Part shown: piece after piece, positions 7,319-48,623 of the stretch
Layout of the letters: every line of letters starts with the position of its first letter
How positions within the stretch are numbered: the first letter of the stretch is position 1
Assembly (NCBI GenBank): GCA_934167305.1
Contig: CAKPKQ010000002.1
Location: 26,791 to 90,790, forward strand
From: an uncultured Clostridia bacterium
Lineage (GTDB): Bacteria; Bacillota; Clostridia; TANB77; CAG-508
Length of the DNA stretch: 64,000 nt
Reading direction: 5' to 3'
The notes under the pieces: generated by a model
The model's input: the letters and a program-made list of their open reading frames with translations, nothing else
Told to the model about the DNA's origin: nothing
The model's database searches: none
Program-made: the position numbers and the translations under genes

Positions 7319-7349
7319 TGTCAGTTTAGGGACGTTTCTTTAACTGACA
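7319..7349. repeat. Solo unit of the nested-palindrome repeat family
   Basis: tgtcagtttagggacgtttctttaactgaca has 8-bp inverted ends (tgtcagtt/aactgaca). It lies between the stop of the CapA-like gene (7350) and the rimO RBS. Confidence 0.85.
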
Positions 7350-8666: not shown

Positions 8667-9680
8667 TTAGTTTTTACTCACACAAGGAGCATTATGAACT
8701 ACTATCCCATTTGCAAAAAAGTTATCATTTTCATCATTATCTATTTCTTCATTAAAATCTACTATATCTAAGTTATATGTTACTATTGGTTCTGTTGTGT
8801 ATCTTTCTATTTTACTTATTTTAGTATATCCTTCTTTTGTTTTTACATAATCTTGCTCTGTCAAAGTTTCAAATCCCATATAATTTGTTAATGATTTAAA
8901 TCCTTCTTTTGTGTATAGTGGATGATAATCCGTCATATCTAGTACTGTTCCATCTTCTAGATACACCTTTGCCATGTTTGTTGCTTTTGGATTTATTATT
9001 AAAGAATTTACTTTTGCTAAATATTTTTCTCCTGTTTTAACATTATATGATACTACTGTATCTCCTTTTCTATAATCTTCTATATTTTTTGTGTTTCCTT
9101 CTAAATCAGATAATACCTGCGTTCCAGCAACAAAACAACAGTTATTAACATATACTTCAAATGTATCTGTTTTATTGCCATTCTCTGTCATTGCAGTTAT
9201 AACAAGAGTTTCTCCTCCTCTCACATACTTGCTTATTTTCACAGTATTTTCATTAACAGTAGTGATTGTTGCAGACTCATCACTACAACTCCATGTAACC
9301 TTTTTATTGGTTGCATTTTCTGGCTCTATTATTGCGGAAAGTTCTAAGTTTAAATTTCCTTCTATCACAGTTGTATTTTCCGAATCAACCCCATTATATA
9401 ATATTTTAATACCAGTTACAGGGATATTAGTATCTGTTATACTATCTATTTTATTTGATAAATCATTCATCGCATCTAAGTCACTATCTTTTGCTTCATT
9501 CATTTCTTTTTGCGATTCCCTAGCTATTTTTATTATTCCTTTATCACTAAACACTGAATTTATTGTTACTCCCGCTAAAATTAATAGTATTATTATAGTA
9601 ATTACTAAAGCTATTAAAGTAATACCTTTTTGATTGGTATAAACCTTTTTGCTCTTTGTAAATTTTATATTTACTTTCAT
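8667..9680 (-). CDS. Modular surface protein: prepilin-like N-terminal module + Big_2 Ig-like domain + C-terminal Hint (bacterial intein-like) domain
   Basis: NQKGITLIALVITIIILLILAGV leader. Big_2-like segment (EPENATNKKVTWSCSDESATITTV...LVITAMTENGNKTDTFEVYV). Hint blocks CFVAGTQV..., TDYHPLYT, and NFFANGIVVHN followed by only 7 residues. Confidence 0.8.
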   Translation of the reverse strand: MKVNIKFTKSKKVYTNQKGITLIALVITIIILLILAGVTINSVFSDKGIIKIARESQKEMNEAKDSDLDAMNDLSNKIDSITDTNIPVTGIKILYNGVDSENTTVIEGNLNLELSAIIEPENATNKKVTWSCSDESATITTVNENTVKISKYVRGGETLVITAMTENGNKTDTFEVYVNNCCFVAGTQVLSDLEGNTKNIEDYRKGDTVVSYNVKTGEKYLAKVNSLIINPKATNMAKVYLEDGTVLDMTDYHPLYTKEGFKSLTNYMGFETLTEQDYVKTKEGYTKISKIERYTTEPIVTYNLDIVDFNEEIDNDENDNFFANGIVVHNAPCVSKN

Positions 9681-9845: not shown

Positions 9846-10922
9846 TTATTTTACATATTCATTTAATGGTTTTGTTCTGTAGTTTAGCTCTCCAAATTTA
9901 TCCGTAGTTACATAACCTGGTACACTATTTATAACATCTGGTATACGATTTACAATTGATGCACAAGTTAATTCAACTGTTGCTGGTCTTGCAACAACTA
10001 TTGTTGTATCTGGTTCTCCATAAATTGTCCATTCATTTTTGTCATAGTCTTCTTTTGAATATACTTTGCCAATACATTCTGATTCAATAGTAATTCCTTC
10101 TTTAGTTGTTGTTGTAACAACTGCACTCATTCCTGTAGCATCTCCAGCTTTTACTGTCATTCCTAATGTTGAAGAATATATATCTTCTTTATATGTTTGT
10201 GGTACTGTTTTTTGTGTTTGTCTTTCTACTGTTAATCCAAGTTTAGAGCATAACCAACCATTTACATTCCACATATATGATGGTAAATATTTTCCTGATT
10301 CAATAACTTTTTGTCTTTCTTCATCAGTAATTTTATCAACTGAAGCTACTTGATCTTCAAATTCTTGCATTGTTAATCCAGAGCCATGTGCTTTTGCTAA
10401 AGCAATTCCGTAATCTTCTACATTGTAGCTTGAACTACCTTTTATTTTTGTAATTTTATGTGTTGATCCAGCAATTGAGCTGATTAATTGTCCCCAATAA
10501 ATATCTTGATATCCACTTCCTGTGATTGTACATCCTGTTTGTTTTGCCATTTCATCTAATTCTTTAGTAATTGCTGGGTTTGAATTTTCTGGGTAAAAAG
10601 CTTCTTCACATGTTGTAATTGCATTTATTCCAAGTTTAGCACAAAGCATTAAAGCATCTCTAACGTCTGCAATTAAGCTCATTGTAGTAACTATAGCTAT
10701 ATCAGGTTTTACTTGTTTTAACATTTCTTCTGCATTTTCTAAAGCTGTTACTGTTACACCTTTATTTCCTCCTCCAATGATTTCTCCTATATCCTTTCCA
10801 ACAACAGCTGGGTTTACATCAATAGCTCCAACTATTTCTGCTCCTTTTTCATAAACATAACGCATAGTATAAAATGCCATTTTTCCTGTACCAAATTGTA
10901 CAACTTTTACTTTTCTATCCAT
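9846..10922 (-). CDS. DapB-like NAD(P)-binding oxidoreductase (amine dehydrogenase / 2,4-diaminopentanoate dehydrogenase-like family)
   Basis: N-terminal Rossmann motif KVVQFGTGKMAFYTMRY...GAEIVGAIDVNP. Size and layout resemble Ord/AmDH-type proteins. This is a family-level call from memory only. Confidence 0.55.
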   Translation of the reverse strand: MDRKVKVVQFGTGKMAFYTMRYVYEKGAEIVGAIDVNPAVVGKDIGEIIGGGNKGVTVTALENAEEMLKQVKPDIAIVTTMSLIADVRDALMLCAKLGINAITTCEEAFYPENSNPAITKELDEMAKQTGCTITGSGYQDIYWGQLISSIAGSTHKITKIKGSSSYNVEDYGIALAKAHGSGLTMQEFEDQVASVDKITDEERQKVIESGKYLPSYMWNVNGWLCSKLGLTVERQTQKTVPQTYKEDIYSSTLGMTVKAGDATGMSAVVTTTTKEGITIESECIGKVYSKEDYDKNEWTIYGEPDTTIVVARPATVELTCASIVNRIPDVINSVPGYVTTDKFGELNYRTKPLNEYVK

Positions 10923-11064
10923 AAATTTTCCTCCTTTGAAATTTTATACATTGATTATATACCAAACATAAAAAAATATACAAGTGTTATTTTGTGAATT
11001 TTAATTGATTTTTTTATGTACTTTCTTATATAATAAAAATATATAAAATAAGGAGGATTTTAAA

Positions 11065-11784
11065 ATGTCAATTCATTGTAATGCTAAAAAAGAAGATATA
11101 ACTAAAACTGTTCTTATGCCTGGTGACCCTCTTCGTGCAAAATATATTGCCGAAAATTTTTTAGAAAATGCTAGGCTAGTAAATACAGTTAGAAATATGC
11201 TTGCATATACAGGAACATATAAAGGAAAAGAAATTTCTGTTTTTTCTCATGGTATGGGAATGGCAAGTATGGGAATCTATTGTTATGAATTATATAAATT
11301 CTATGATGTAGAAAATATTATTCGTATTGGTTCATGTGGAGCTTATTCTGAAGATTTAAATATTTTTGATACTATATTAGTTGATAATAGCTACACAGAA
11401 GGTAACTTTGCTTATGAATGGAATAATAAAGATTGTCATTTAATAGAATCTAGTAGTTTATTAAATGAAATTATAGAAAAAACTTCACAAAACTGTAATA
11501 TTCCTTATGTTAAAGGAAATATTTTATGTAGTGATTGCTTTGATGGATATTTGGAAGATGTAAATGGTTTAATTAATAGATTTCCAAAAGACTTAAATAT
11601 TATTGGAGCAGAAATGGAATCTTTTGCACTATTTTACTTAGCAAAATATTTAGGAAAACAAGCCTCTTGCTTATTAACAGTTGTTGATTCAATTTGCAAA
11701 AAACAAGAAATAAGTTCTGAAGATCGCGAAAAATCTTTAAACAATATGATAACATTAGCTTTAGAGAGTGCTTTGTCAGTTTAG
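11065..11784 (+). CDS. deoD: Purine nucleoside phosphorylase, DeoD type (PNP_UDP_1 family)
   Basis: Motifs VLMPGDPLRAKYIAENFL, YTGTYKGKEISVFSHGMGMASMGIY and GAEMESFALF. The last four codons, including the stop, lie inside the repeat element. Confidence 0.85.
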   Translation: MSIHCNAKKEDITKTVLMPGDPLRAKYIAENFLENARLVNTVRNMLAYTGTYKGKEISVFSHGMGMASMGIYCYELYKFYDVENIIRIGSCGAYSEDLNIFDTILVDNSYTEGNFAYEWNNKDCHLIESSSLLNEIIEKTSQNCNIPYVKGNILCSDCFDGYLEDVNGLINRFPKDLNIIGAEMESFALFYLAKYLGKQASCLLTVVDSICKKQEISSEDREKSLNNMITLALESALSV

Positions 11785-11911
11785 GGACGTTTCTTTAACT
11801 GACATAAATGTCAGTTTTTGGGGACACATCTTTAATTTAAATTAGCAATAATTAAAGATGTGTCCCCTGACTGACAAAAATGTCAGTTGAAGAAACGTCC
11901 CCAAACTGACA
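11774..11911. repeat. Full-length nested-palindrome repeat element (138 bp)
   Basis: Unit (11774-11804), taaa, central long hairpin tgtcagtttttggggacacatcttta...taaagatgtgtcccctgactgaca (11809-11876), aaaa, inverted unit (11881-11911). It fills the convergent deoD/greA intergenic gap. Confidence 0.9.
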
Positions 11912-11918
11912 CTTTTAT

Positions 11919-12395
11919 TTATTTTGTTATTGATAATACTTTATATTGGATAATTCCTGCTGGTGCTTGAACTTCTACTATTTGGTTTTTCTTAGCTCCT
12001 AAGATTGCACTTCCTATTGGAGATTCGTTTGATATTTTGTTTTGTGCTAAGTCAACTTCTGTAGAACCTACTAATGTATAGCTTACTTCTTCATTGAATT
12101 CCATGTCTAATAATTTTACTGTATTTCCAACTTGAACTGTTTTAGTATCTATTTCTGATTCATCTATAATTTTTGCATTTCTAAGCTTGTTTTCTAATTC
12201 TACAATTTTGGTTTCGTTTTCAGCTTGAGCATTTTTTGCTTCATCATATTCTGAGTTTTCTGATAAATCACCAAATCCTAAAGCAATTTTTATTCTTTCA
12301 GCTATTTCAGCTCTTTTAGTTGTTTTTAAATTATCTAATTCTTGTTCTAATTTGTCATAACCTTCTTGTGTTAGTAATACCTCTTTTTCTTCCAT
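11919..12395 (-). CDS. greA: Transcription elongation factor GreA
   Basis: 158 aa with a coiled-coil N-domain ([17 protein letters not shown]...[12 protein letters not shown]) and a GreA/B C-terminal domain ([12 protein letters not shown]). Confidence 0.95.
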
Positions 12396-12515
12396 TTGTC
12401 TTACCTCCTTTGCACGAATAAAAAAAATGACTGCAACAAATTAGCTTTATAATTTATTGCGACTTCTTTAATATACTAAAATTTTTATTTTTTGTCAAGA
12501 ATATTCATGTAAATT

Positions 12516-13499
12516 TCACAATACTCCATTTTTTCCATATAATGTTATTATTTTTACTTCATCCTTTTTCATTTTTTCTTTGACATATTCTAAGTTTTGT
12601 TTCTTGTTTATTAGACTCTCATATAATGTAGCCATTGAACAGTCATCTGTCAAATTATATTCTTCAAAAAAGTCTTTAACTTTTTCTGATGTACTTATTC
12701 CTACTTTTCTGATTTGTATTCCAGAATATGTACAGCTTTCATAGAATCCGTTTTTATTTATTGTAATAATTGTTGCATCTCTGTATATTGTATATTTTTT
12801 TATTTCTTGTTCGCTAAAGTCAAAATTTACTATTATTTTTGATTTTTTTAGACTTTTCTTTTTATTGTTTGTTACAGTAATTACTGTACTTACTTGATTT
12901 TCTACTTGATCTGCTATATTTTGAAATTGTCTTATATTTGGAGTAATAATATTTACAGTTTTAAAATAGTGTATTAAGTAATATATGTTTTCTACGCAAA
13001 TATTATTCACTTCTTTTGCACAAATATATAAATCTTCAGTTTCTGTTTTTAGATTTTGCTTTTTTAATGTAAATTCTATTATTTCTTTTATTAAGTATGG
13101 CATTATTCCTCTACCATCTAGTATATGAATTTTTTTAATTTCATCTTCTATTATTTTATTAAACATATGATATTTTTGCAATTTTTCTTCCGCAACCAAA
13201 GTTTGTATGTTATATTTTTGCATTAATTTTTTAACTTTTTTTAAACATATTTTTATTTTTTGTGTCTTTTCTAATTCTCTAAATGGCATTATAAATAAAT
13301 ATGCATTATATATTTCTTTGACTGTTATTATATTAAAAATATACTTTATTTTTGCTATTATTTTATAGAAAAATGAACATATATAATATGCTACTTTATA
13401 AATTATTCCTTGCTTTTCCTTCAGTGTTTTTAAGTAATCACTCTCATATAATTCTTCTTCATTTGTTTCTAGTTTTAAATATCCAAGCAAAAAAATCAC
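12516..13499 (-). CDS. Hypothetical protein (327 aa), no family recognised
   Basis: Long uninterrupted ORF, extremely AT-rich. No motif recognised and the start codon is uncertain. Confidence 0.45.
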   Translation of the reverse strand: MIFLLGYLKLETNEEELYESDYLKTLKEKQGIIYKVAYYICSFFYKIIAKIKYIFNIITVKEIYNAYLFIMPFRELEKTQKIKICLKKVKKLMQKYNIQTLVAEEKLQKYHMFNKIIEDEIKKIHILDGRGIMPYLIKEIIEFTLKKQNLKTETEDLYICAKEVNNICVENIYYLIHYFKTVNIITPNIRQFQNIADQVENQVSTVITVTNNKKKSLKKSKIIVNFDFSEQEIKKYTIYRDATIITINKNGFYESCTYSGIQIRKVGISTSEKVKDFFEEYNLTDDCSMATLYESLINKKQNLEYVKEKMKKDEVKIITLYGKNGVL

Positions 13500-13557
13500 C
13501 TCAATATATATAAGCTTGTTTTATATTATATTGAAGTGATTTTTGATTTATGACCTT

Positions 13558-15246
13558 TTAGATTCCTATTTTATTTGATATTAAATTCCAAATAGATGAT
13601 GTTGATCTATCATATTCCCAAAATGCTGCTCCCCCTAAATTATATTTAGATACTAAGTCCAATTTTGCTTCAATAGATTTTTCATCTTCAACCCATATTT
13701 TATATGTTGCTCCATTTTTCTGGTATTCAACATAATATTGCTGTAAACTCTCATCCCAATTTTTTTGTGCATTACTTGGTATTACTTTATCTATGTTTCC
13801 CATGTTTACTACATCTGATGTTACATTTCCATTTGATTCTTTCCAAACTCTTGTATAAAATGGTACTCCTAAGATCAATTTACTTGCTTCTACTCCTTCT
13901 TGACCTAGGAATTTTTTTACATTAGTTTCTACCCAATCACAACCAGCAGTAGTTCCTGCTTTTGTTGATGTAGCTCCATATTGATCATATGCCATAAACA
14001 TTATATAATCTGCTATTTTGCCAATTATATTTCTATCATAACATAAAGACCATTCTGGTGCGCCGTCTGGTGCTGTAACATCTACTGATAATACTACTCC
14101 TATTTCATTTAATCTTGGTCTTAGTTCAATTAAAAATCTAGAAAAATTGTCTTTGTCTGTTTCATACATTCCCTCAAAGTCAATGTTTATTCCGTCTATA
14201 TTATATTCTGTTATGTAGTCTACAAGTTGATTTATTACATTTTCTCTTAGTTTATAATCTGCTAACATTTTTGATGTTTCACTCATATTAGAATTTGTAA
14301 ACATTGGCCAAACTTTATAGTTGTTTTCATGTGCCCAATTTACATATTGTTTTCCCTCTTCACCTACATTTGCATATACTTTCGTTGTGCTATATTTACT
14401 CATATAGAAGAAACTTGGAGAAACAACATTTATTCCTTTTATGTTTTCGTTTCTTGTTGGAGCAGATACATATTCAGAATAATAATCCCATGCTACACTT
14501 ATTTTTCCTTCCATTTTAGGTGTTTCTTGTATTGCTTGTCTAATTACATTTTCTTTACCCATTTTATTTATTTTTATATAGCCTATTATTCCTTCTTGTG
14601 TTCTAACTCTTGTCCAACCATTTGGAACAGGGAAGTCCGATCTATTAGCAATTACAAGAGTATCTCCTTCTTTTGCTTTTGCTAATGTTGCTGAAATATT
14701 AGTTGGTTTATATTTTATATTAACATTTTTGGCAAGTGTTGCTATTTTTTGCTCTCTGTCTAATGAGTCAATATATACTAAATCTGTACTTTCAACATAT
14801 GTTGTTTTAGTATTATATACATCTTCTAGCTCAGATATTGGAACATATGCTACATTGTCAATTATTATGGCTCCTAATTTAATTGTAACATTTGAACTAT
14901 TAATTTGAATTTGCTTACTATCTATTGGTAAACTTGCTATTTTTTTGCTAGATCCAGTAATTACTTGATTATATTTTTCATCATAAGTAATTGTATTATC
15001 AAAAAAATTATATATGTCTGGCTTTGATAAATATACAACTCCATCTTTTATATATACATCGTTTTTTAAACTTGTAGTAACATTTGAATTATTTATAATT
15101 AAATTAGTTTGATTTATGGTTTTTACAATGTAATTTTTCTTTATTACATATGAGGCTCCAATTATTCCTGCTATTAGAATAAGCATTATAATAATTAAAA
15201 CTATTACTTTTCCTGTTTTTGATTTTTTTTCTTTAAATCTGCTCAT
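13558..15246 (-). CDS. Glycoside hydrolase family 18 protein (YaaH/YdhD-like, membrane-anchored)
   Basis: N-terminal TM segment, a copper-amine-oxidase-N-like/SH3-like region, and a GH18 catalytic motif DGINIDFE with a MAYDQYG segment. Confidence 0.8.
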   Translation of the reverse strand: MSRFKEKKSKTGKVIVLIIIMLILIAGIIGASYVIKKNYIVKTINQTNLIINNSNVTTSLKNDVYIKDGVVYLSKPDIYNFFDNTITYDEKYNQVITGSSKKIASLPIDSKQIQINSSNVTIKLGAIIIDNVAYVPISELEDVYNTKTTYVESTDLVYIDSLDREQKIATLAKNVNIKYKPTNISATLAKAKEGDTLVIANRSDFPVPNGWTRVRTQEGIIGYIKINKMGKENVIRQAIQETPKMEGKISVAWDYYSEYVSAPTRNENIKGINVVSPSFFYMSKYSTTKVYANVGEEGKQYVNWAHENNYKVWPMFTNSNMSETSKMLADYKLRENVINQLVDYITEYNIDGINIDFEGMYETDKDNFSRFLIELRPRLNEIGVVLSVDVTAPDGAPEWSLCYDRNIIGKIADYIMFMAYDQYGATSTKAGTTAGCDWVETNVKKFLGQEGVEASKLILGVPFYTRVWKESNGNVTSDVVNMGNIDKVIPSNAQKNWDESLQQYYVEYQKNGATYKIWVEDEKSIEAKLDLVSKYNLGGAAFWEYDRSTSSIWNLISNKIGI

Positions 15247-17127: not shown

Positions 17128-17514
17128 ATGGATTTTATACAAAGTATTGACTGGTTAGGAATATTAAAATGTTTTGTTGTTGGAGGAATTATATGTATTA
17201 TTGGACAAATTCTTATAGACAAAACCAAATTAACTCCTGCTAGAATTTTGGTTATATATGTTACTGTTGGTGCTATTTTAGGTGGACTTGGAATTTACAA
17301 ATATTTAATAGATTTTGCTGGTGCTGGCGCTACTGTTCCATTAACTGGATTTGGTGCAAATTTGGCCAAAGGTGCTATACAAGAAGTTAAATCTTCTGGA
17401 TTATTAGGTGCTTTTGTTGGTGGTGTAAAGGCTTCTGCTGGCGGAATTGCTGCTGCTGTTTTCTTTGGATATTTAGCATCTTTGATTGCAAAACCTAAAA
17501 TAAAGAAACAATAA
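17128..17514 (+). CDS. spoVAE: Stage V sporulation protein AE (SpoVAEb-type)
   Basis: GGAGG RBS upstream of the ATG at 17128. Multi-TM protein with GAGATVPLTGFGANLAKG, paralogous to SpoVAC. Confidence 0.85.
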   Translation: MDFIQSIDWLGILKCFVVGGIICIIGQILIDKTKLTPARILVIYVTVGAILGGLGIYKYLIDFAGAGATVPLTGFGANLAKGAIQEVKSSGLLGAFVGGVKASAGGIAAAVFFGYLASLIAKPKIKKQ

Positions 17515-17557
17515 AAAATACAGCTCAATTTTTGAGTTGTATTTTTTATTATTTTCC

Positions 17558-19330
17558 TTATAAATAAAGTATTACTCTAAAACCAACAAAATCATGTGGA
17601 AATCTTATACTATCTGACAATCTAAAACTTGCATAATAGTATGTATCATTATAATATCCACCCCTGCATACACAAGGTGAAGATGACTTTGTTGAATACT
17701 CTGTTGTCCATTCACATACATTGCTTGCCAAGTCAAAAATTTTACATACTTCATCACCTGTTGCACCAGTAGTTTTTAAAGTTGTATTTGTTCCTCTGCC
17801 TGCATTTGGATAATTACTTTGTTGCATAGTTCTTATATATAATAATGTTGTATCCCATGCATAGCTATTTATTAAATCAGCTTCTAAAGAATTATTATCT
17901 GTATATGCACTTCTTGCAATTCTTGCAGCAGCTACTTGTGTTACATAATTCCATACTCCCAAACCTTTTTTAGATTGTGGTTTAACACTTCCGTCTGTTA
18001 ATGTTTTTTTAGCTAATTGATTATTATCAACTGTGCCTGTTATTCCAGCTTCATAACGAGCTATATAAAATCCACCATTATTTTTAACTTTTGTTATAAA
18101 ATCTTTTAAGTTCTTAGCAGTAGTATTAGTTGATGTTGAATCATATAAACCATTCGAAATTCTTGAATCACTTAGTTCGTAGAAGAAACTACCAGATCTA
18201 TACTTTGTATCTACTGTTCCGTCTGCCACGTTCTCTGCTGTTGTTTTTAAATAATCAGCTCCACTTTGTATCAAACTCGGAGTTCCATCCTCATATTCAT
18301 TTGTTGTTGAATTTTTTACCCTTTTAAATCCATATCTTCCCAGAGTTATTACTACTTCTGTACCATCACTTTTTTTAATAGGATTTGTATTACTTCCATC
18401 AATATTGCTTACTGGTACCCATACATATTGATTTCCTTCACTGTCTTCTATTACTATGCCTTCTTCAACTGTATCTCCAGAATCATCTGCTAAATCAAAT
18501 CCATCTGGAATCACTATTGTATTACCATTTGAATCTTCTATTTTTCCACTAATTGGACCCTTTAAAATTGGACCTTCAATCGTTTCTCTTTTGTTTCCAA
18601 CATTATCAACTGATAAAACATGCAAATAATATCTTTCTTTTGTTATATCAAGCGTAATTGTCTCTTCAGTATTTGTAAAAGAATTTGTATAAGAGCTTTC
18701 ATTTGTTCCAATCATTGAATTTGTTGTATTATATACCCATTTACATTTACTGATATCAATTCCTGTTTCATTATCATTTAGAACAATTTTAGCATTTATA
18801 CTTTTTCTACCATTAGAACTAATTGATATTGACGCATCTTCCGGTGCCATTCCATCTATTATTTTTATACTACTTAATGTATTTTTTACTATTTCATCAT
18901 TTTTTAGTAATCTAGCCCAAACTGTATCATTATGTTTTAAGTTAATTATTGGTTCAGTATATTCGATCCAATCTCCAGTATTAGAATTTTTTTGATATTG
19001 TATTGTATAACCTTTTATAGTATAGTTTCCTTTTGTTGCCTTTAATTTTAAGGTTACTTTTCCATCTTTCCATTTTTCTTTTCCATCTTTTTCAACTTTT
19101 AATACTGTTGATTCTGCTGGATTCATAATACTATTTAAATTATTTAGCATATTATTCAATTCTTCATTAGCTAAGTCAGATCTTTCTTCTACATTTTGTG
19201 CATAATTTTCAGATCTATTTACAACACCATTATCACTTACAATCATAACTACAGACGTAATAGCTAAAATTAATGTAATTATTATTGTTACAGCTAAAGC
19301 AATTAGAGTTATACCCTTTTGATCTCTCAT
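17558..19330 (-). CDS. Modular surface protein: prepilin-like N-terminal module + Ig-like middle region + C-terminal FGE-sulfatase (SUMF1 / C-type-lectin-fold) domain
   Basis: Start chosen at MRDQKGITLIALAVTIIITLIL (GAGG RBS), not the upstream ATG at 19360. The C-terminus has SUMF1-type motifs (YVWVP, GFYIARYE, NSYAWDT, GDEVCKIFDLASNVCEWTTE, CRGG..., GFRVILYL). Confidence 0.8.
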   Translation of the reverse strand: MRDQKGITLIALAVTIIITLILAITSVVMIVSDNGVVNRSENYAQNVEERSDLANEELNNMLNNLNSIMNPAESTVLKVEKDGKEKWKDGKVTLKLKATKGNYTIKGYTIQYQKNSNTGDWIEYTEPIINLKHNDTVWARLLKNDEIVKNTLSSIKIIDGMAPEDASISISSNGRKSINAKIVLNDNETGIDISKCKWVYNTTNSMIGTNESSYTNSFTNTEETITLDITKERYYLHVLSVDNVGNKRETIEGPILKGPISGKIEDSNGNTIVIPDGFDLADDSGDTVEEGIVIEDSEGNQYVWVPVSNIDGSNTNPIKKSDGTEVVITLGRYGFKRVKNSTTNEYEDGTPSLIQSGADYLKTTAENVADGTVDTKYRSGSFFYELSDSRISNGLYDSTSTNTTAKNLKDFITKVKNNGGFYIARYEAGITGTVDNNQLAKKTLTDGSVKPQSKKGLGVWNYVTQVAAARIARSAYTDNNSLEADLINSYAWDTTLLYIRTMQQSNYPNAGRGTNTTLKTTGATGDEVCKIFDLASNVCEWTTEYSTKSSSPCVCRGGYYNDTYYYASFRLSDSIRFPHDFVGFRVILYL

Positions 19331-19346
19331 ATTTAATACCTCTTTT

Positions 19347-19556
19347 TTATATATCTTCATTCAGCTCATTAATCAAGTTTTTTAACTCCCTATTATTGGA
19401 ATCTTGACCATCTTGAATTCCTTCCACTAAATTTTGCGATTTATCTATTATTCCATCTTCTTTAAACACTATGTCAATTGACACCGTTACTAAAATCAAC
19501 AAAATAATTATTGTTATTACTAAAACAATTAGTGTTATTCCCTCTTGTTTTTTCAT
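19347..19556 (-). CDS. Stand-alone prepilin-like N-terminal module (69 aa)
   Basis: MKKQEGITLIVLVITIIILLILV... followed by the same acidic helical stalk as its neighbours (...RELKNLINELNEDI). A GAAGG RBS is present. It has no C-terminal domain. Confidence 0.6.
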   Translation of the reverse strand: MKKQEGITLIVLVITIIILLILVTVSIDIVFKEDGIIDKSQNLVEGIQDGQDSNNRELKNLINELNEDI

Positions 19557-19583
19557 TTCAAACCTTCTTTCTTGTTGCTATTT

Positions 19584-21332
19584 TCATTTAACATATAGTA
19601 TTGGTCTAAATCCATAAATTATGTCATTATAGCTTACTTCCCATTTCATTCTTGAGTTAATTGTAAGTGAACTATCATAGAAAATTCCACCTCTTGTTAC
19701 ACATGGTGTATATTCTTCTTCATCAGCAAAAAACTCTGTTGTCCATTCAAACAAATTGCCGCTCATATCAAATATCTTGCACACTTCGTCTCCTGTTTCT
19801 CCTGTATTTCTTATTGTTCCGTTTCCATCTGATTTAATGGCATAACTATTGCCTTTCATTTTTTTCATATATACTATAGTTGTGTCCCATGCATAACTAT
19901 TTATCAAATCACATGCCACTGTTTCATTAGCTTTATACATGTTTTTACATACTTTAGCAGCATTTGATTGATTAATGCAATTCCATAATGTTCCTTTGTT
20001 ATAATTCATTTGACTCATACTCATTGCTGTAGATTTTTTTGACATTGGTTTTGCATTTTTATATCTTTCAGAATCATTTTCTCCTTGCTCATTATACCCT
20101 TCATTATAACTTGCTTCATATCTTGCTATATAAAATCCTTTATTTACCTTTACATTGTTTATAAATTCTTTCAAATTTTCCGCAGATGTGTTTATTTCAA
20201 CAAAGTCATCTTCTCCATTTGATTCTCTATATTCTTTTAATTCTTTATATTGGCCTATTGGAGTTTCATTTTCATAGTTATCACCACTTTGAACCATTGT
20301 TTCTTCTCCACTTGAATTAAAAGTATATCTACCTAATGTTATTACAACTTTGCTTCCATCATCTTTTATTATTGGATTACTATTACTTCCATCAGTATTA
20401 CTTACAGGTACCCACACGAACTGATTTCCATCAGCATCTTCTACAACAATTCCTTGTTCAACTGTACTACCTGAATCGCTTGCTAATTTAAAGCCTCCTG
20501 GTATTACTATATTGTTCCCTTTTGAATCTTGCATGATTCTTGTTATATATTGAACCTCAATTGGCCCCTTTATTGTTTCTTTTGCATTACTTGCTTTATC
20601 AACTGATAATATATGTATATACCATGGTTTTGAGCTTGCCAGATTTAAGCTTATAGTTTGGTTATCACTAGTAAAAGTATTAGTATAATTTGAGCTATCT
20701 AGTCCAAGTGCAGTATTGGAATTATTTAATATCCATTTACACTTGGAAATATCAATTCCAGTTTCATTATCAATATGTTCTACTGTTACTGAATTAACTT
20801 TATTATTTGCAATATCAACATCAAATGTAGTTAATGCCTCTTCTGGCACTATATTATCCATAATTCTTACTGTAGTTGTAGTATTCTCCACAACTGCTTT
20901 GTCTTTCACAGCTCTATAAACCAATGTACTATTATGTGGCAGGTCTGTTATTGGACCAGTATAAGTTGTCCACACACCACTTGAAACACCCTTTTTGTAT
21001 TCAATTTTATATTCATCTGCAACCTTTTGATTTGCAATTACCATTAATTCTATAGTTGCATATCCATTTTTCCATTTTTTAATTCCCAATTGCTCAATTC
21101 TTACTTCTTTTGTATTTGCCTCTTTAAGTATAACATCAAGTTGATCTATTAACTCTTTTACCTTTCGATCATTTTTTTGTTGTTTTTCTTCCATTCTATC
21201 TGATAAGTCCGTAGCCTGATCTGTCATTCCATCTTCATCAATTAATGTATTAACTGTTGCTCCAACTAATATTAATATTACAATTATTGTTACTGCTAAA
21301 ACAATTAATGTAACACCTCTTTGATTTTTCAT
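19584..21332 (-). CDS. Modular surface protein, paralog: prepilin-like module + Ig-like region + FGE-sulfatase/CLec-fold domain
   Basis: MKNQRGVTLIVLAVTIIVILIL leader with a GAGG RBS. Shared middle block DNETGIDISKCKW...HILSVDKASNAKETIKGPI. C-terminal motifs FVWVP, GFYIARYE, NSYAWDT, GDEVCKIFDMSGNLFEWTTE, TRGG..., GFRPILYV. Confidence 0.8.
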   Translation of the reverse strand: MKNQRGVTLIVLAVTIIVILILVGATVNTLIDEDGMTDQATDLSDRMEEKQQKNDRKVKELIDQLDVILKEANTKEVRIEQLGIKKWKNGYATIELMVIANQKVADEYKIEYKKGVSSGVWTTYTGPITDLPHNSTLVYRAVKDKAVVENTTTTVRIMDNIVPEEALTTFDVDIANNKVNSVTVEHIDNETGIDISKCKWILNNSNTALGLDSSNYTNTFTSDNQTISLNLASSKPWYIHILSVDKASNAKETIKGPIEVQYITRIMQDSKGNNIVIPGGFKLASDSGSTVEQGIVVEDADGNQFVWVPVSNTDGSNSNPIIKDDGSKVVITLGRYTFNSSGEETMVQSGDNYENETPIGQYKELKEYRESNGEDDFVEINTSAENLKEFINNVKVNKGFYIARYEASYNEGYNEQGENDSERYKNAKPMSKKSTAMSMSQMNYNKGTLWNCINQSNAAKVCKNMYKANETVACDLINSYAWDTTIVYMKKMKGNSYAIKSDGNGTIRNTGETGDEVCKIFDMSGNLFEWTTEFFADEEEYTPCVTRGGIFYDSSLTINSRMKWEVSYNDIIYGFRPILYVK

Positions 21333-21387
21333 TTTAAATACCTCTTATTTTGAATTTTAGTCTTTTAATTCCAGTTTTACTGAAGGT

Positions 21388-22287
21388 TTAAGTGAAACTA
21401 TTGGCATTAGTTACAATTTTCCCAATATAATATTTAAAATTATTTTCTGTTAATGTTACTGTTTCTCCGTTTATTACTACTTTTGGAGATTTTGATACAT
21501 CTGCTCTGCATTTTTTTACAGTTTCTCTAGCATTTCCTGCATTATCTACAGATAATACATGTAAATACCATGCTCCTGCTGTGTCACCAGATATTTCAAT
21601 TTTTTCACCATCATTTGTAAAAGAATTACTATATTTGCTTGCTTCTGTTCCTATTAGTGAACTTATTTGATTAATCTCCCATTTACATGCTGTAATTTTT
21701 ATTCCACTTTCATTATCAGTATGGCTGATTGTTGCAGAGCCACTATACCCTGTAGCCATATCTGTATCTAATATTATAGTTGCTTCTTTAGGAGCTATTT
21801 TATCTAATATAGTTATGCTTGTTGTGTCACTTACAGCAACACTATTACTATCAATTGCATAACATAATATAGTATCCCCATTATCACCTGTAATTGAGTC
21901 TTTGTATGTATTCCACACTCTATTAATTCCTCTTGTTGATGCTGTTTTTTTATACAATATGTCATATTCATCTGTAGGATATCCACCATCTAAAACTTTT
22001 AATTTTATTGTAGCTTTTCCATCTTTCCACACAGTTTTTCCATCTTGTACAACCTCAATTTGAGGAGACTCCTCTGGATTCATTATTGAATCTAATTCAT
22101 CAGCCATATCTTTAATTTTTTTATCATTTTCTTTACTACTTTTTTCAACATTTTTTGATAAGTCTACAGCTTGATTACTAAGTCCTTCATCATCTAACAA
22201 AGCTGCCAAAGTCGTACTTGCTAAAATAAGTAATATTATTATTGTTACTACTAAAGCGATTAATGTTATACCTTTTTGATTTTTCAT
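21388..22287 (-). CDS. Modular surface protein, paralog lacking the FGE domain: prepilin-like module + Ig-like region
   Basis: Start at MKNQKGITLIALVVTIIILLIL (GTGAGGA RBS). Shares DNESGIKITACKW...YLHVLSVDNAGNARETV with the two larger paralogs and ends shortly after that block. Confidence 0.75.
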   Translation of the reverse strand: MKNQKGITLIALVVTIIILLILASTTLAALLDDEGLSNQAVDLSKNVEKSSKENDKKIKDMADELDSIMNPEESPQIEVVQDGKTVWKDGKATIKLKVLDGGYPTDEYDILYKKTASTRGINRVWNTYKDSITGDNGDTILCYAIDSNSVAVSDTTSITILDKIAPKEATIILDTDMATGYSGSATISHTDNESGIKITACKWEINQISSLIGTEASKYSNSFTNDGEKIEISGDTAGAWYLHVLSVDNAGNARETVKKCRADVSKSPKVVINGETVTLTENNFKYYIGKIVTNANSFT

Positions 22288-22493: not shown

Positions 22494-22985
22494 ATGAAAG
22501 AATCCAGAAATAAAATTCTTTTATGTATTTTAATTATTTTAATAGTATTACTAATTATAGTGTGTATTTTAGTAAATGTAGGTAAATTTATAAAAAATAA
22601 AGAAAACCCCGAAAATTCTGAATCAAACAATATAGAAAAGTATCTTACTGTTATACCAGAAGATCTTGATTCTGATGATACAGAAAGTGCCAATATAAAA
22701 TCTTTAAAAATTACGAAAAAATATAATAAAATAGAAATTTACAATATACAATTTTTCTTGCAAAATAAAAAAACAATTTTATCTATAACTCAAAAAAATA
22801 CAGACAGCAAAGAACATAAGCAAGAAATAGTTTCAATGTCTGCTTTAGATGATAAAGGTTCTGTTATAAGCACCTTCAATATACCTCTACTTAACCTTAA
22901 TCCAGGTGAATCTCTATCATTTAACATGTCAATCGAAACAGATTTATCAAATATGAAAGACTTTAGCATTAAAGCTAAAGAGTAA
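22494..22985 (+). CDS. Hypothetical membrane-anchored protein
   Basis: GGAAGG RBS, one N-terminal TM helix (ILLCILIILIVLLIIVCILV), transcribed divergently from the pilin-like cluster. No family recognised. Confidence 0.55.
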   Translation: MKESRNKILLCILIILIVLLIIVCILVNVGKFIKNKENPENSESNNIEKYLTVIPEDLDSDDTESANIKSLKITKKYNKIEIYNIQFFLQNKKTILSITQKNTDSKEHKQEIVSMSALDDKGSVISTFNIPLLNLNPGESLSFNMSIETDLSNMKDFSIKAKE

Positions 22986-29228: not shown

Positions 29229-29284
29229 TGTCAGTTTGGGGACGTTTCTTTAACTGACATTTTGTCAGTTTGGGGACACATCTT
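29229..29284. repeat. Left-half copy of the nested-palindrome repeat element
   Basis: Unit tgtcagtttggggacgtttctttaactgaca (29229-29259), ttt, then tgtcagtttggggacacatctt (29263-29284). The similarity ends at the centre of the palindrome. Confidence 0.85.
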
Positions 29285-41977: not shown

Positions 41978-42063
41978 GAGACACATCTTTTGAGATTTAA
42001 ACTTTTAAGATGTGTCCCCTGACTGACATTTTTGTCAGTTAAAGAAACGTCCCCAAACTGACA
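41978..42063. repeat. Right-half copy of the nested-palindrome repeat element
   Basis: Central hairpin gagacacatctt...aagatgtgtcccctgactgaca (41978-42028), spacer, then the inverted unit tgtcagttaaagaaacgtccccaaactgaca (42033-42063). It abuts the prkC stop codon (42064). Confidence 0.85.
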
Positions 42064-48486: not shown

Positions 48487-48623
48487 TGTCAGTTCGGGGA
48501 CGTTTCTTTAACTGACACTTTTGTCAGTTGAGGGACACATCTCTCAAGCTTTTTTATCATGCTTTTAAGATGTGTCCCCCGAGTGACATTTGTGTCAGTT
48601 AAAGAAACGTCCCCGAACTGACA
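48487..48623. repeat. Full-length nested-palindrome repeat element (137 bp)
   Basis: Unit (48487-48517), cttt, central hairpin tgtcagttgagggacacatct...agatgtgtcccccgagtgaca (48522-48588), tttg, inverted unit (48593-48623). It ends 2 nt from the aspS stop codon. Confidence 0.9.

Follow-up and report, generated by a model that had tools for sequence, protein, structure and literature searches.

A stable array of prepilin-like paralogs in an uncultured gut Clostridia bacterium contains probably static members of a lectin-fold family that retroelements diversify in its relatives

What might four tandem paralogs with prepilin-like N termini be doing between two core operons of an uncultured gut bacterium? 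The genes, here called A to D, lie on a 64,000-nucleotide stretch (the window) of contig CAKPKQ010000002.1 from an uncultured Clostridia bacterium of the lineage CAG-508, and a preliminary description made from the sequence alone had taken them for a diversifying adhesin or receptor-binding family displayed on a pilin-like anchor. The four co-oriented open reading frames (ORFs) that it placed between the spoVA and rplT operons were confirmed on the minus strand (Table 1). The array is flanked on one side by the convergent spoVAC/AD/AEB genes and on the other by a divergent 163-aa ORF followed by rplT-rpmI-infC, and both its GC content (~0.27 to 0.32) and its strand skews match those of the surrounding DNA. 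The remaining window ORFs that were scanned (≥120 aa) are housekeeping or sporulation genes, namely, rpoD, dnaG, spoVA, sipL, yabG, pflB, prkC, aspS, proS, and others. Proteins of 299, 582, 69, and 590 aa were also called independently on six other metagenome contigs, with A at 314 aa in one strain, and the organization of the array is identical on contigs from Hadza, Nepalese, and other gut samples. The reading that we favor, with a probability of about 0.65, is that the locus is a stable, species-conserved array of paralogous surface proteins in which B and D are static, fixed-specificity members of a family of head domains targeted by diversity-generating retroelements (DGRs).

The argument starts from the C-terminal head of B and D, which spans ~320 aa. 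The signal for the Pfam family FGE-sulfatase (PF03781) is marginal but real. The C-terminal domain of B on its own reaches 23.4 bits against a cut-off of 23.3, D stays below it at 13.7 bits, and the model matches 12 of 22 family members, with 40.1 bits for the relative P0239. An AlphaFold2 model of residues 262 to 582 of B, built from 106 diverse sequences, had a predicted local distance difference test score (pLDDT) of 96.7 and a predicted template modeling score (pTM) of 0.95. When this model was compared with the PDB by Foldseek, the matches all belonged to the FGE/C-type-lectin superfamily (PorK, pFGE, PvdO, CarF, ToxD, OvoA, EgtB, and FGE), with probabilities of up to 1.00, and they included three solved DGR variable proteins: Mtd (1yu1, E = 8e-4), TvpA (2y3c), and TaqVP (5vf4). 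A search of PDB sequences with the head gave no match. The claim that the two longest proteins end in an FGE-type domain is thus borne out, both by the Pfam score of the B head and by its predicted fold.

Since six of these matches (FGE, pFGE, OvoA, EgtB, PvdO, and ToxD) can be counted in favor of a catalytic role, the C-terminal domain might function enzymatically, in the manner of FGE, EgtB/OvoA, or PvdO, instead of binding ligands. We take the catalytic cysteine pair of FGE to sit in the C-terminal segment downstream of the RGG motif, and PDB titles among the fold matches name the FGE mutants C336S and C341S. No cysteine follows RGG in either B (Cys 474, 518, and 544; RGG at 547) or D (Cys 529, 539, 553, and 555; RGG at 556), so that the catalytic cysteines, whose retention would have spoken for an enzyme, are absent from both proteins. 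The same segment is hypervariable in homologs under DGR control, which is incompatible with a conserved active site, and no sulfatase or related pathway genes were found near the array in the window. An enzymatic head is therefore very unlikely. Lacking the catalytic cysteines, B and D are most likely ligand-binding proteins of fixed specificity, in agreement with the earlier proposal that the head is a non-enzymatic scaffold of the ligand-binding type.

The fold also raises the question of a viral origin. Searched against a library of viral structures, the B head matched tail collar fiber and SUMF1-like proteins, and lectin-fold proteins associated with DGRs are common in gut phages (PMC8144416), as would suit a prophage remnant encoding receptor-binding (tail-fiber) proteins. 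However, neither B nor D hits any PHROG family, which argues against such an origin. In addition, the neighbors are core genes (spoVA and rplT-infC), the window contains no phage genes, the GC content matches the surroundings, and an N-terminal membrane anchor is foreign to tail fibers. We consider a prophage remnant extremely improbable.

The head belongs to a very large family, with no fewer than 3,575 clusters. A first homolog search with B yielded more than 3,650 proteins at E ≤ 1e-3 among 8,000 candidates scored, and an exhaustive scan gave 3,575 clusters at 50% identity at the same E value and 302 at E ≤ 1e-30. The commonest form is a protein of ~460 aa in which the shared leader and a helix are followed by a low-complexity linker and then by the shared head, and a second search, with a head profile, recovered this abundant group again with no added diversity. 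All genome hits were metagenome-assembled genomes (MAGs) of uncultured gut Clostridia, including Clostridium sp. CAG:508 and a circular 1.57-Mb MAG. Paralogs can be numerous within a single MAG (at least 8, 5, and 4 in CAKOVX01, CABUKD01, and OZ007016.1, respectively), and the genomes that carry many of them measure 1.3 to 1.6 Mb. The best match to the array among 185,579 representative genomes was 54% identical. The heads of B and D are 44 to 54% identical over ~320 aa to family genes, among them the variable protein of the locus L078 that is described below.

Two side observations concern the wider family. An identical 464-aa member, P0053, is found after rplU-rpmA in three loci (L001, L002, and L004) and after hisS-spoIIP in another (L003), which suggests gene rearrangement or mobility. 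Three giant proteins, P0151 (6477 aa), P0220 (3424 aa), and P0149 (1998 aa), contain many repeated matches to B (21 matching stretches in P0151 and 12 in P0220), suggesting that head or spacer modules also serve as tandem repeats in very large surface proteins.

In the relatives, variation is focused on the end of the head. A set of 118 aligned ~460-aa proteins is near-invariant save for interspersed positions in the last ~60 residues, the only region where entropy peaks, and the variable C terminus of this group can be written as ...EYSTxTxSSxAYPCTxRGGxYxxSxxYTSxR....SFRPLLYVK. In seven distinct alleles, sites with three or more bases number 21, 21, and 3 at codon positions 1, 2, and 3, respectively, and the third positions of the variable codons are mostly C or T; together, these features are the signature of AAY template codons. 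Reverse-transcriptase ORFs (GNYTSQ...Y(L/M)DD) were found 1 to 1.3 kb downstream of family genes in the loci L060, L067 (CAG:508), and L078, and all three were confirmed by Pfam RVT_1.

The L078 locus contains a complete DGR (Table 1). Over a 142-nt core, its template repeat differs from the variable region at 19 positions, 17 of which are template adenines (binomial p = 9e-6), and the repeat encodes an Asn-rich peptide (STNTNSSNANPCTNRGGNYNNSNNYTANRNNNN...). The repeat also matches the variable regions of other paralogs, some on different contigs of its own MAG and some in a sister MAG, with mismatches that again fall mostly at A; one element thus appears to serve several dispersed targets. 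As a separate observation, the template repeat beside the reverse transcriptase of L067 (3561-3717; Clostridium sp. CAG:508) fails to match the neighboring family gene in its variable region. It matches instead a longer subtype of variable region, present in L012 and L007, and its cognate target is presumably located elsewhere in that genome.

Do B and D share these properties? Family genes were classified as DGR type or static by two measures, namely, how far the GC content of the variable region exceeds that of the gene body and what fraction of codons are NNC. Of 69 distinct family genes, approximately 45 combine a GC jump of +0.10 to +0.22 with an NNC fraction of roughly 0.3 to 0.5 (+0.14 and 0.51 in the proven target of L078), and approximately 20 show no jump; about two thirds of the inspected members carry the DNA marks of a DGR variable region. 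B and D are found at the static end of this distribution, alongside two B/D-type genes of the locus L035. The GC shift is +0.008 in B (0.29 compared with 0.28 in the gene body) and -0.026 in D (0.29 compared with 0.32), with NNC fractions of 0.08 and 0.04, respectively.

Strain variation points the same way. In 15 protein variants of each, collected from public assemblies, 30 positions vary in B and 23 in D, and these are scattered over the full length of the proteins. Only 3 of the 30 and 4 of the 23 lie inside the variable-region equivalent, all as single substitutions. Across seven DNA loci, 44 variable codons of B are synonymous only and 15 are non-synonymous, the corresponding numbers for D being 16 and 7. 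ORF scans and a repeat search of the window revealed no reverse transcriptase and no template repeat, and in the window-wide repeat search neither the 3' end of B nor that of D had a second copy. Hence, B and D are not hypervariable and fail the defining tests of an active DGR target. The comparison between strains that the preliminary description had called for thus uncovered no focused hypervariation of the heads. Its notion of a diversifying family proves correct for the relatives, which are diversified by DGR mutagenic retrohoming, but not for the copies in the window.

It could be argued that B and D are active targets after all, diversified in trans by a retroelement outside the window. 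DGRs of related MAGs do act on several dispersed paralogs, as indicated by the matches of the L078 template to other contigs, and the 460-aa relatives are hypervariable though no reverse transcriptase lies within 10 kb. Yet the 15 protein variants and 7 DNA loci show no focused variation, the GC content is genome-like and the NNC fractions of 0.04 to 0.08 compare with 0.3 to 0.5 in DGR-type members. The variable-region-equivalent DNA of both genes is AT-rich and lacks a GC-rich 3' element resembling an initiation of mutagenic homing (IMH) site. Likewise, the 3' ends of B and D are dissimilar to the two template repeats recovered from the family, the identity of 47 to 49% being background. A degenerate template-pattern scan of metagenome contigs, which had low power given the few conspecific contigs, hit nothing but copies of the genes, a single additional family member, and chance matches. 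Diversification from a distance is, in our judgment, very improbable.

B and D are 40% identical to each other across their full length, but this value conceals large regional differences: 53% in the leader, 13% in the stalk, and 34 to 43% in the beta-rich blocks, and, within the head, 41 to 55% in the lectin scaffold and 29% in the last ~50 residues that correspond to the variable region. The earlier contrast between diverged heads and a conserved leader therefore needs qualification, since the leader is indeed conserved, but the scaffold of the head is nearly as similar and the low values belong to the stalk and the last ~50 residues. Judged by these alignments, the heads are not globally divergent, and the part of the head that does diverge is the predicted binding face. 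The pattern fits different fixed specificities, which are possibly the frozen products of past diversification.

In the scheme that we propose, the head of B and D would be a ligand-binding, FGE-type domain with a C-type-lectin fold, the last ~50 residues of which would form the binding surface. In most of the relatives inspected, the same last residues are the DGR variable region, into which an error-prone reverse transcriptase, acting together with bAvd, copies a template repeat rich in Asn codons. For their part, B and D would have lost, or never had, this link to a retroelement, and would retain fixed specificities under purifying selection. Of the two directions of evolution, we infer loss of DGR control rather than its gain.

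The heads are joined to a leader that is a puzzle of its own. All four N termini conform to M-(K/R)-x-Q-(K/R/E)-G-(I/V)-TLI-(A/V)-L, followed by ~20 hydrophobic residues and an acidic helix, and the Gly at position -1 and the hydrophobic helix are present in 4/4 array proteins. This confirms the shared prepilin-like motif that had been noted, and the Pfam model N_methyl passes its cut-off (21.2 bits) for A with 22.7 bits, while D (16.2) and C (13.9) remain below and B has no hit. The lack of the canonical Glu at +5 holds as well. Residue +5 is Ala or Val and never Glu in all five leader-bearing proteins of the window, i.e., the four array proteins and a Big_2-HINT protein described below, and Glu5 is likewise absent from 89 leaders of related loci and from 87 family representatives. 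The stretch G-ITLIALV-TI-VLLILAG, together with the GxNGI motif that follows it, is nearly invariant over 78 representatives that are less than 50% identical overall, and this near-invariance extends over 20 residues. The leader is also reused on 27 proteins without a lectin head in related loci, in addition to the Big_2-HINT protein of the window. From the alignments, it would seem far more conserved than a plain membrane anchor requires.

Such conservation would make sense if the proteins were genuine type IV pilins of the modular kind. A prepilin peptidase encoded outside the window would then cleave them after Gly, and they would be built, probably at the tip, into a type IV or Tad-like filament that presents the lectin head. 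Besides the N_methyl score of A, that of P0152, a B/D-type relative, lies at the cut-off; the sole and weak matches of a family profile to PDB sequences are the N termini of pilins (MshA and geopilin); and some relatives are annotated in IMG as "pseudopilin PulG." The occurrence of the near-invariant leader and GxNGI on proteins with unrelated C-terminal domains is what a carrier module would show. Glu5 is missing from minor pseudopilins of the tip, such as GspK, so that its absence would suit a tip subunit. Furthermore, the grafting of adhesive domains onto modular pilins is well established as a concept (PMC8179133), and a Tad-like pilus cluster has been reported to be conserved in the order TANB77, including the family CAG-508 (PMC11680825).

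On the other hand, Glu5 is missing from every leader examined, and no Glu5-bearing major subunit was found nearby. A folded globular pilin module is not evident in the full-length model, which is of low confidence, and in the 460-aa relatives the leader helix passes directly into the low-complexity linker. A Pfam scan of the window ORFs found no PilB, PilC, PilD, or ComG, as the preliminary description had stated, and no other type IV pilus, Com, or Tad genes. In motif scans of the window and of 1.2 to 1.33 Mb of related loci, assembly ATPases of the GspE/PilB/CpaF type and the prepilin-peptidase motif GGGD(V/I)K were absent, the only hits being ABC transporters. The Tad/Flp prepilin motif G/xxxxEY is absent from the array-type leaders, and some family members bear other, unrelated transmembrane (TM) leaders without a pilin or Tad signal in Pfam. 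One such second leader class (…RGSMAVYV…) was considered as TadG- or TadE-like, which would tie the heads to a Tad pilus, and was dropped for want of Pfam support. Setting the absence of Glu5, of an evident pilin module, and of assembly genes in the loci scanned against the conservation of the leader and the N_methyl hits, we adopt an N-in/C-out membrane anchor as the default and regard a tip pilin without Glu5 as an unlikely but live rival.

Under the default of a membrane anchor, the short basic leader and the conserved hydrophobic helix would insert each protein into the cytoplasmic membrane in an N-in/C-out orientation, with an anchor helix that resembles a class III (prepilin) signal minus Glu5. 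The acidic alpha-helical stalk, supplemented by a beta-rich spacer in A, B, and D, would hold the C-terminal part off the membrane. The middle block common to these three proteins had been described as Ig-like, and a shared beta-rich block is confirmed by the 41 to 42% identity of A to B and of A to D over ~259 aa, corresponding to the N-terminal part of B and D. It is covered by the DNA repeat families D3 to D5 in the window-wide repeat search and has no match in Pfam or among PDB sequences.

A and C lack a lectin head. In A, the middle block is followed by a short C-terminal tail, and other species have proteins of ~260 aa that resemble A (P0214 and P0236). Gene C has the same length in all seven strain contigs and just 4 homologs in 5.8 billion proteins, one of which is a 73-aa protein that is 46% identical. 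A place for C in a broad family of short helix-only pilins was rejected in view of these few homologs. It is either a stalk-only protein or partner or the remnant of a duplicated 5' end.

Several points weigh against the reading that we favor. The similarity of the B head to solved C-type-lectin/FGE structures is weak (TM-score, 0.26 to 0.47; E, ~1e-3). Full-length AlphaFold2 modeling of B with 123 near-redundant homologs gave a pLDDT of only 41, leaving the stalk and the beta-rich blocks structurally undefined. The model leaves the roles of the headless A and C unexplained, and a leader conserved to such an extreme hints at some dedicated partner, for which the model makes no provision. Finally, the search for a DGR covered only 64 kb of the genome, and a remote DGR is possible.

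Taken alone, the window yields a moderate finding: the genes are stable, their variation is ordinary, and ligand binding is a prediction. The wider gain is that the FGE-like head of an apparently orphan architecture is explained as a scaffold that DGRs use, here in a fixed form. The earlier statement that no function had been described for this architecture was too strong, because, among cellular DGR targets, N-terminally membrane-anchored binding proteins of the C-type-lectin fold form the most frequent class (PMC8144416). As far as we found, what had not been described is the occurrence of a leader without Glu5 across the family, the scale of the family in gut Clostridia with reduced genomes, and static arrays. 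Given that the family mixes DGR-diversified and static copies, it offers a natural system in which to ask when bacteria keep and when they randomize a binding specificity. Likewise, the presence of the leader without Glu5 on many unrelated heads is a testable lead to surface display in these organisms.

The value of the finding would rise sharply if the leader defines a dedicated display machinery. CAG-508 is a family in the uncultured order TANB77. A link between this order and the response to immunotherapy has been reported, and a Tad-like pilin-like protein was put forward as its mediator (PMC11680825); the relatives of the array family appear to belong to the same order. As a tentative and rather speculative extension, the Glu5-less module KGITLIALVxTIxVLLILAG...GxNGI might be the carrier of an undescribed, lineage-wide display system in TANB77-like gut Clostridia, be it a divergent type IV filament or a dedicated machinery for anchor recognition. 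Its interchangeable heads would be DGR-hypermutated lectin domains, static lectin domains as in B and D, and Ig or HINT modules. If true, this would be the first case in Gram-positive bacteria of DGRs diversifying type-IV-pilin-like proteins, and in a clade linked to host immune responses.

The surroundings of the array contain further features (Table 1). The product of the divergent 163-aa gene, which is possibly associated with the array, matches no Pfam family at threshold. Homologs with 39% identity are located directly upstream of both tandem B/D-type genes in L035 (6235-6714 and 9469-9948), a locus of another MAG, and these two B/D-type genes are identical in their N-terminal two thirds and differ in their heads. 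This arrangement hints at a functional link of the 163-aa gene with the array-type genes and at head swapping by duplication and recombination. The fifth protein with the same leader, which likely starts at the leader near 9638, has Pfam E values of 8e-6 for Big_2, 5.6e-5 for PT-HINT, and 4.6e-4 for N_methyl. As its HINT domain (…VVHNA) ends ~8 residues before the stop codon, it appears to be a HINT module without a downstream toxin domain.

Two other elements of the window were noted in passing. A 31-nt palindromic element, TGTCAGTT-N15-AACTGACA with the core GGGACGTTTCTT, occurs in seven intergenic copies where none is expected by chance, and some of the copies form head-to-head pairs beside the 3' ends of genes. 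It matches no Rfam family and looks like a repetitive extragenic palindrome (REP)-like or terminator-like repeat. In addition, 45 nt at positions 462-506 are 93% identical to positions 380-424, part of the adjoining tRNA-Met gene (345-421), and may have arisen by partial duplication of the tRNA, for example as the scar of an old integration.

Table 1. Coordinates of the array, of associated window features, and of the DGR in the related locus L078
Locus	Feature	Coordinates	Strand	Description or basis
Window	Gene A, 299 aa from MKNQKG	21388..22287	-	Leader and TM helix, acidic helical stalk, beta-rich middle block
Window	Gene B, 582 aa	19584..21332	-	Leader/TM 1-30, stalk 31-75, two beta-rich blocks 76-260, FGE/C-type-lectin-fold head 262-582; ORF list, Pfam
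Window	Gene C, 69 aa	19347..19556	-	Leader, TM helix, acidic helix, nothing further
Window	Gene D, 590 aa from MRDQKG	17558..19330	-	Architecture as in B
Window	Variable-region equivalent of B, residues ~534-582 (...PCVTRGG...GFRPILYVK)	19587..19733	-	Alignment to the DGR variable region of relatives
Window	Variable-region equivalent of D (...PCVCRGGYYNDTYYYASFRLSDSIRFPHDFVGFRVILYL)	17561..17704	-	
Window	Terminator-like hairpin, 19-pair stem then T run	17510..17550		Separates D from the convergent spoVA operon at their 3' ends
Window	Divergent 163-aa gene	22494..22985	+	N-terminal TM helix and small beta domain
Window	Fifth protein with the same leader (NQKGITLIALVITIIILLILAG...)	8667..9680	-	Fused to Big_2 and C-terminal pretoxin-HINT; repeat family D2, Pfam
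Window	31-nt palindrome copies	7319-7349, 11774-11804, 11881-11911(-), 29229-29259, 42033-42063(-), 48487-48517, 48593-48623(-)		
L078	Variable protein	9983-11302		Same leader
L078	MutS_I-domain ORF, 165 aa	11496-11993		MutS domain I, E = 2e-7; between variable protein and bAvd
L078	bAvd			PF22296, E = 2.7e-18
L078	Reverse transcriptase	12348-13367		
L078	Template repeat, 152 nt	13451-13602		

In comparison with known systems, B and D share with SUMF1/FGE (PF03781) the fold and the conserved RGG and GFR motifs. In contrast to the enzyme, they have no catalytic cysteine pair, the corresponding segment being the variable one. They come closer in kind to the solved DGR variable proteins TvpA of Treponema denticola (2Y3C), Mtd of Bordetella phage BPP-1 (1YU0-2), and TaqVP (5VF4), with which they have the C-terminal domain of the FGE/C-type-lectin fold in common. 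In all of them the last ~50 residues (RGG...GFR) would constitute a variable ligand-binding face on a non-catalytic, surface-displayed protein, and close homologs of B and D are bona fide DGR targets with a reverse transcriptase, bAvd, and a template repeat. The resemblance to these three structures is remote, with TM-scores of 0.26 to 0.34 for the B head and no detectable sequence similarity to PDB chains. Unlike them, B and D are not hypervariable and have no cognate template repeat or reverse transcriptase in the window. In place of a lipoprotein signal or a phage fiber shaft, they have a pilin-like anchor and Ig-like spacers, together with an additional N-terminal beta subdomain.

Among cellular systems at large, most DGR targets are N-terminally membrane-anchored binding proteins (Roux et al. 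2021, PMC8144416), and both Firmicutes and the human gut are enriched for DGRs (PMC8144416). The targets in that survey resemble the present family in their N-terminal TM or signal segment, their domains of the adhesion or carbohydrate-binding type, and their C-terminal lectin-fold variable region. The survey differs in that it covers DGR-linked copies only, without static paralog arrays, and describes no pilin-like leader without Glu5 (PMC8144416).

The modular pilins of Streptococcus sanguinis, in which PilB bears a vWA module and PilC a lectin module, similarly combine an N_methyl-type motif with a grafted binding module, the carrier being reused with many heads (Raynaud et al. 2021, PMC8179133). 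In contrast to the array proteins, they have Glu5, a folded pilin module, and a pil operon with PilD, PilB, and PilC, none of which was found in the window or the related loci. The tip adhesins of the Bacteroides type V pilus are built differently, as lipoprotein precursors in a diderm, and for the Clostridia proteins membership in a pilus is hypothetical. The Bacteroides adhesins offer a parallel to the coexistence of diversified and fixed heads, as their lectin-fold head likewise occurs in a DGR-diversified version (BunT) and in a static one (BovFim1C) (bioRxiv 10.1101/2024.11.15.621889).

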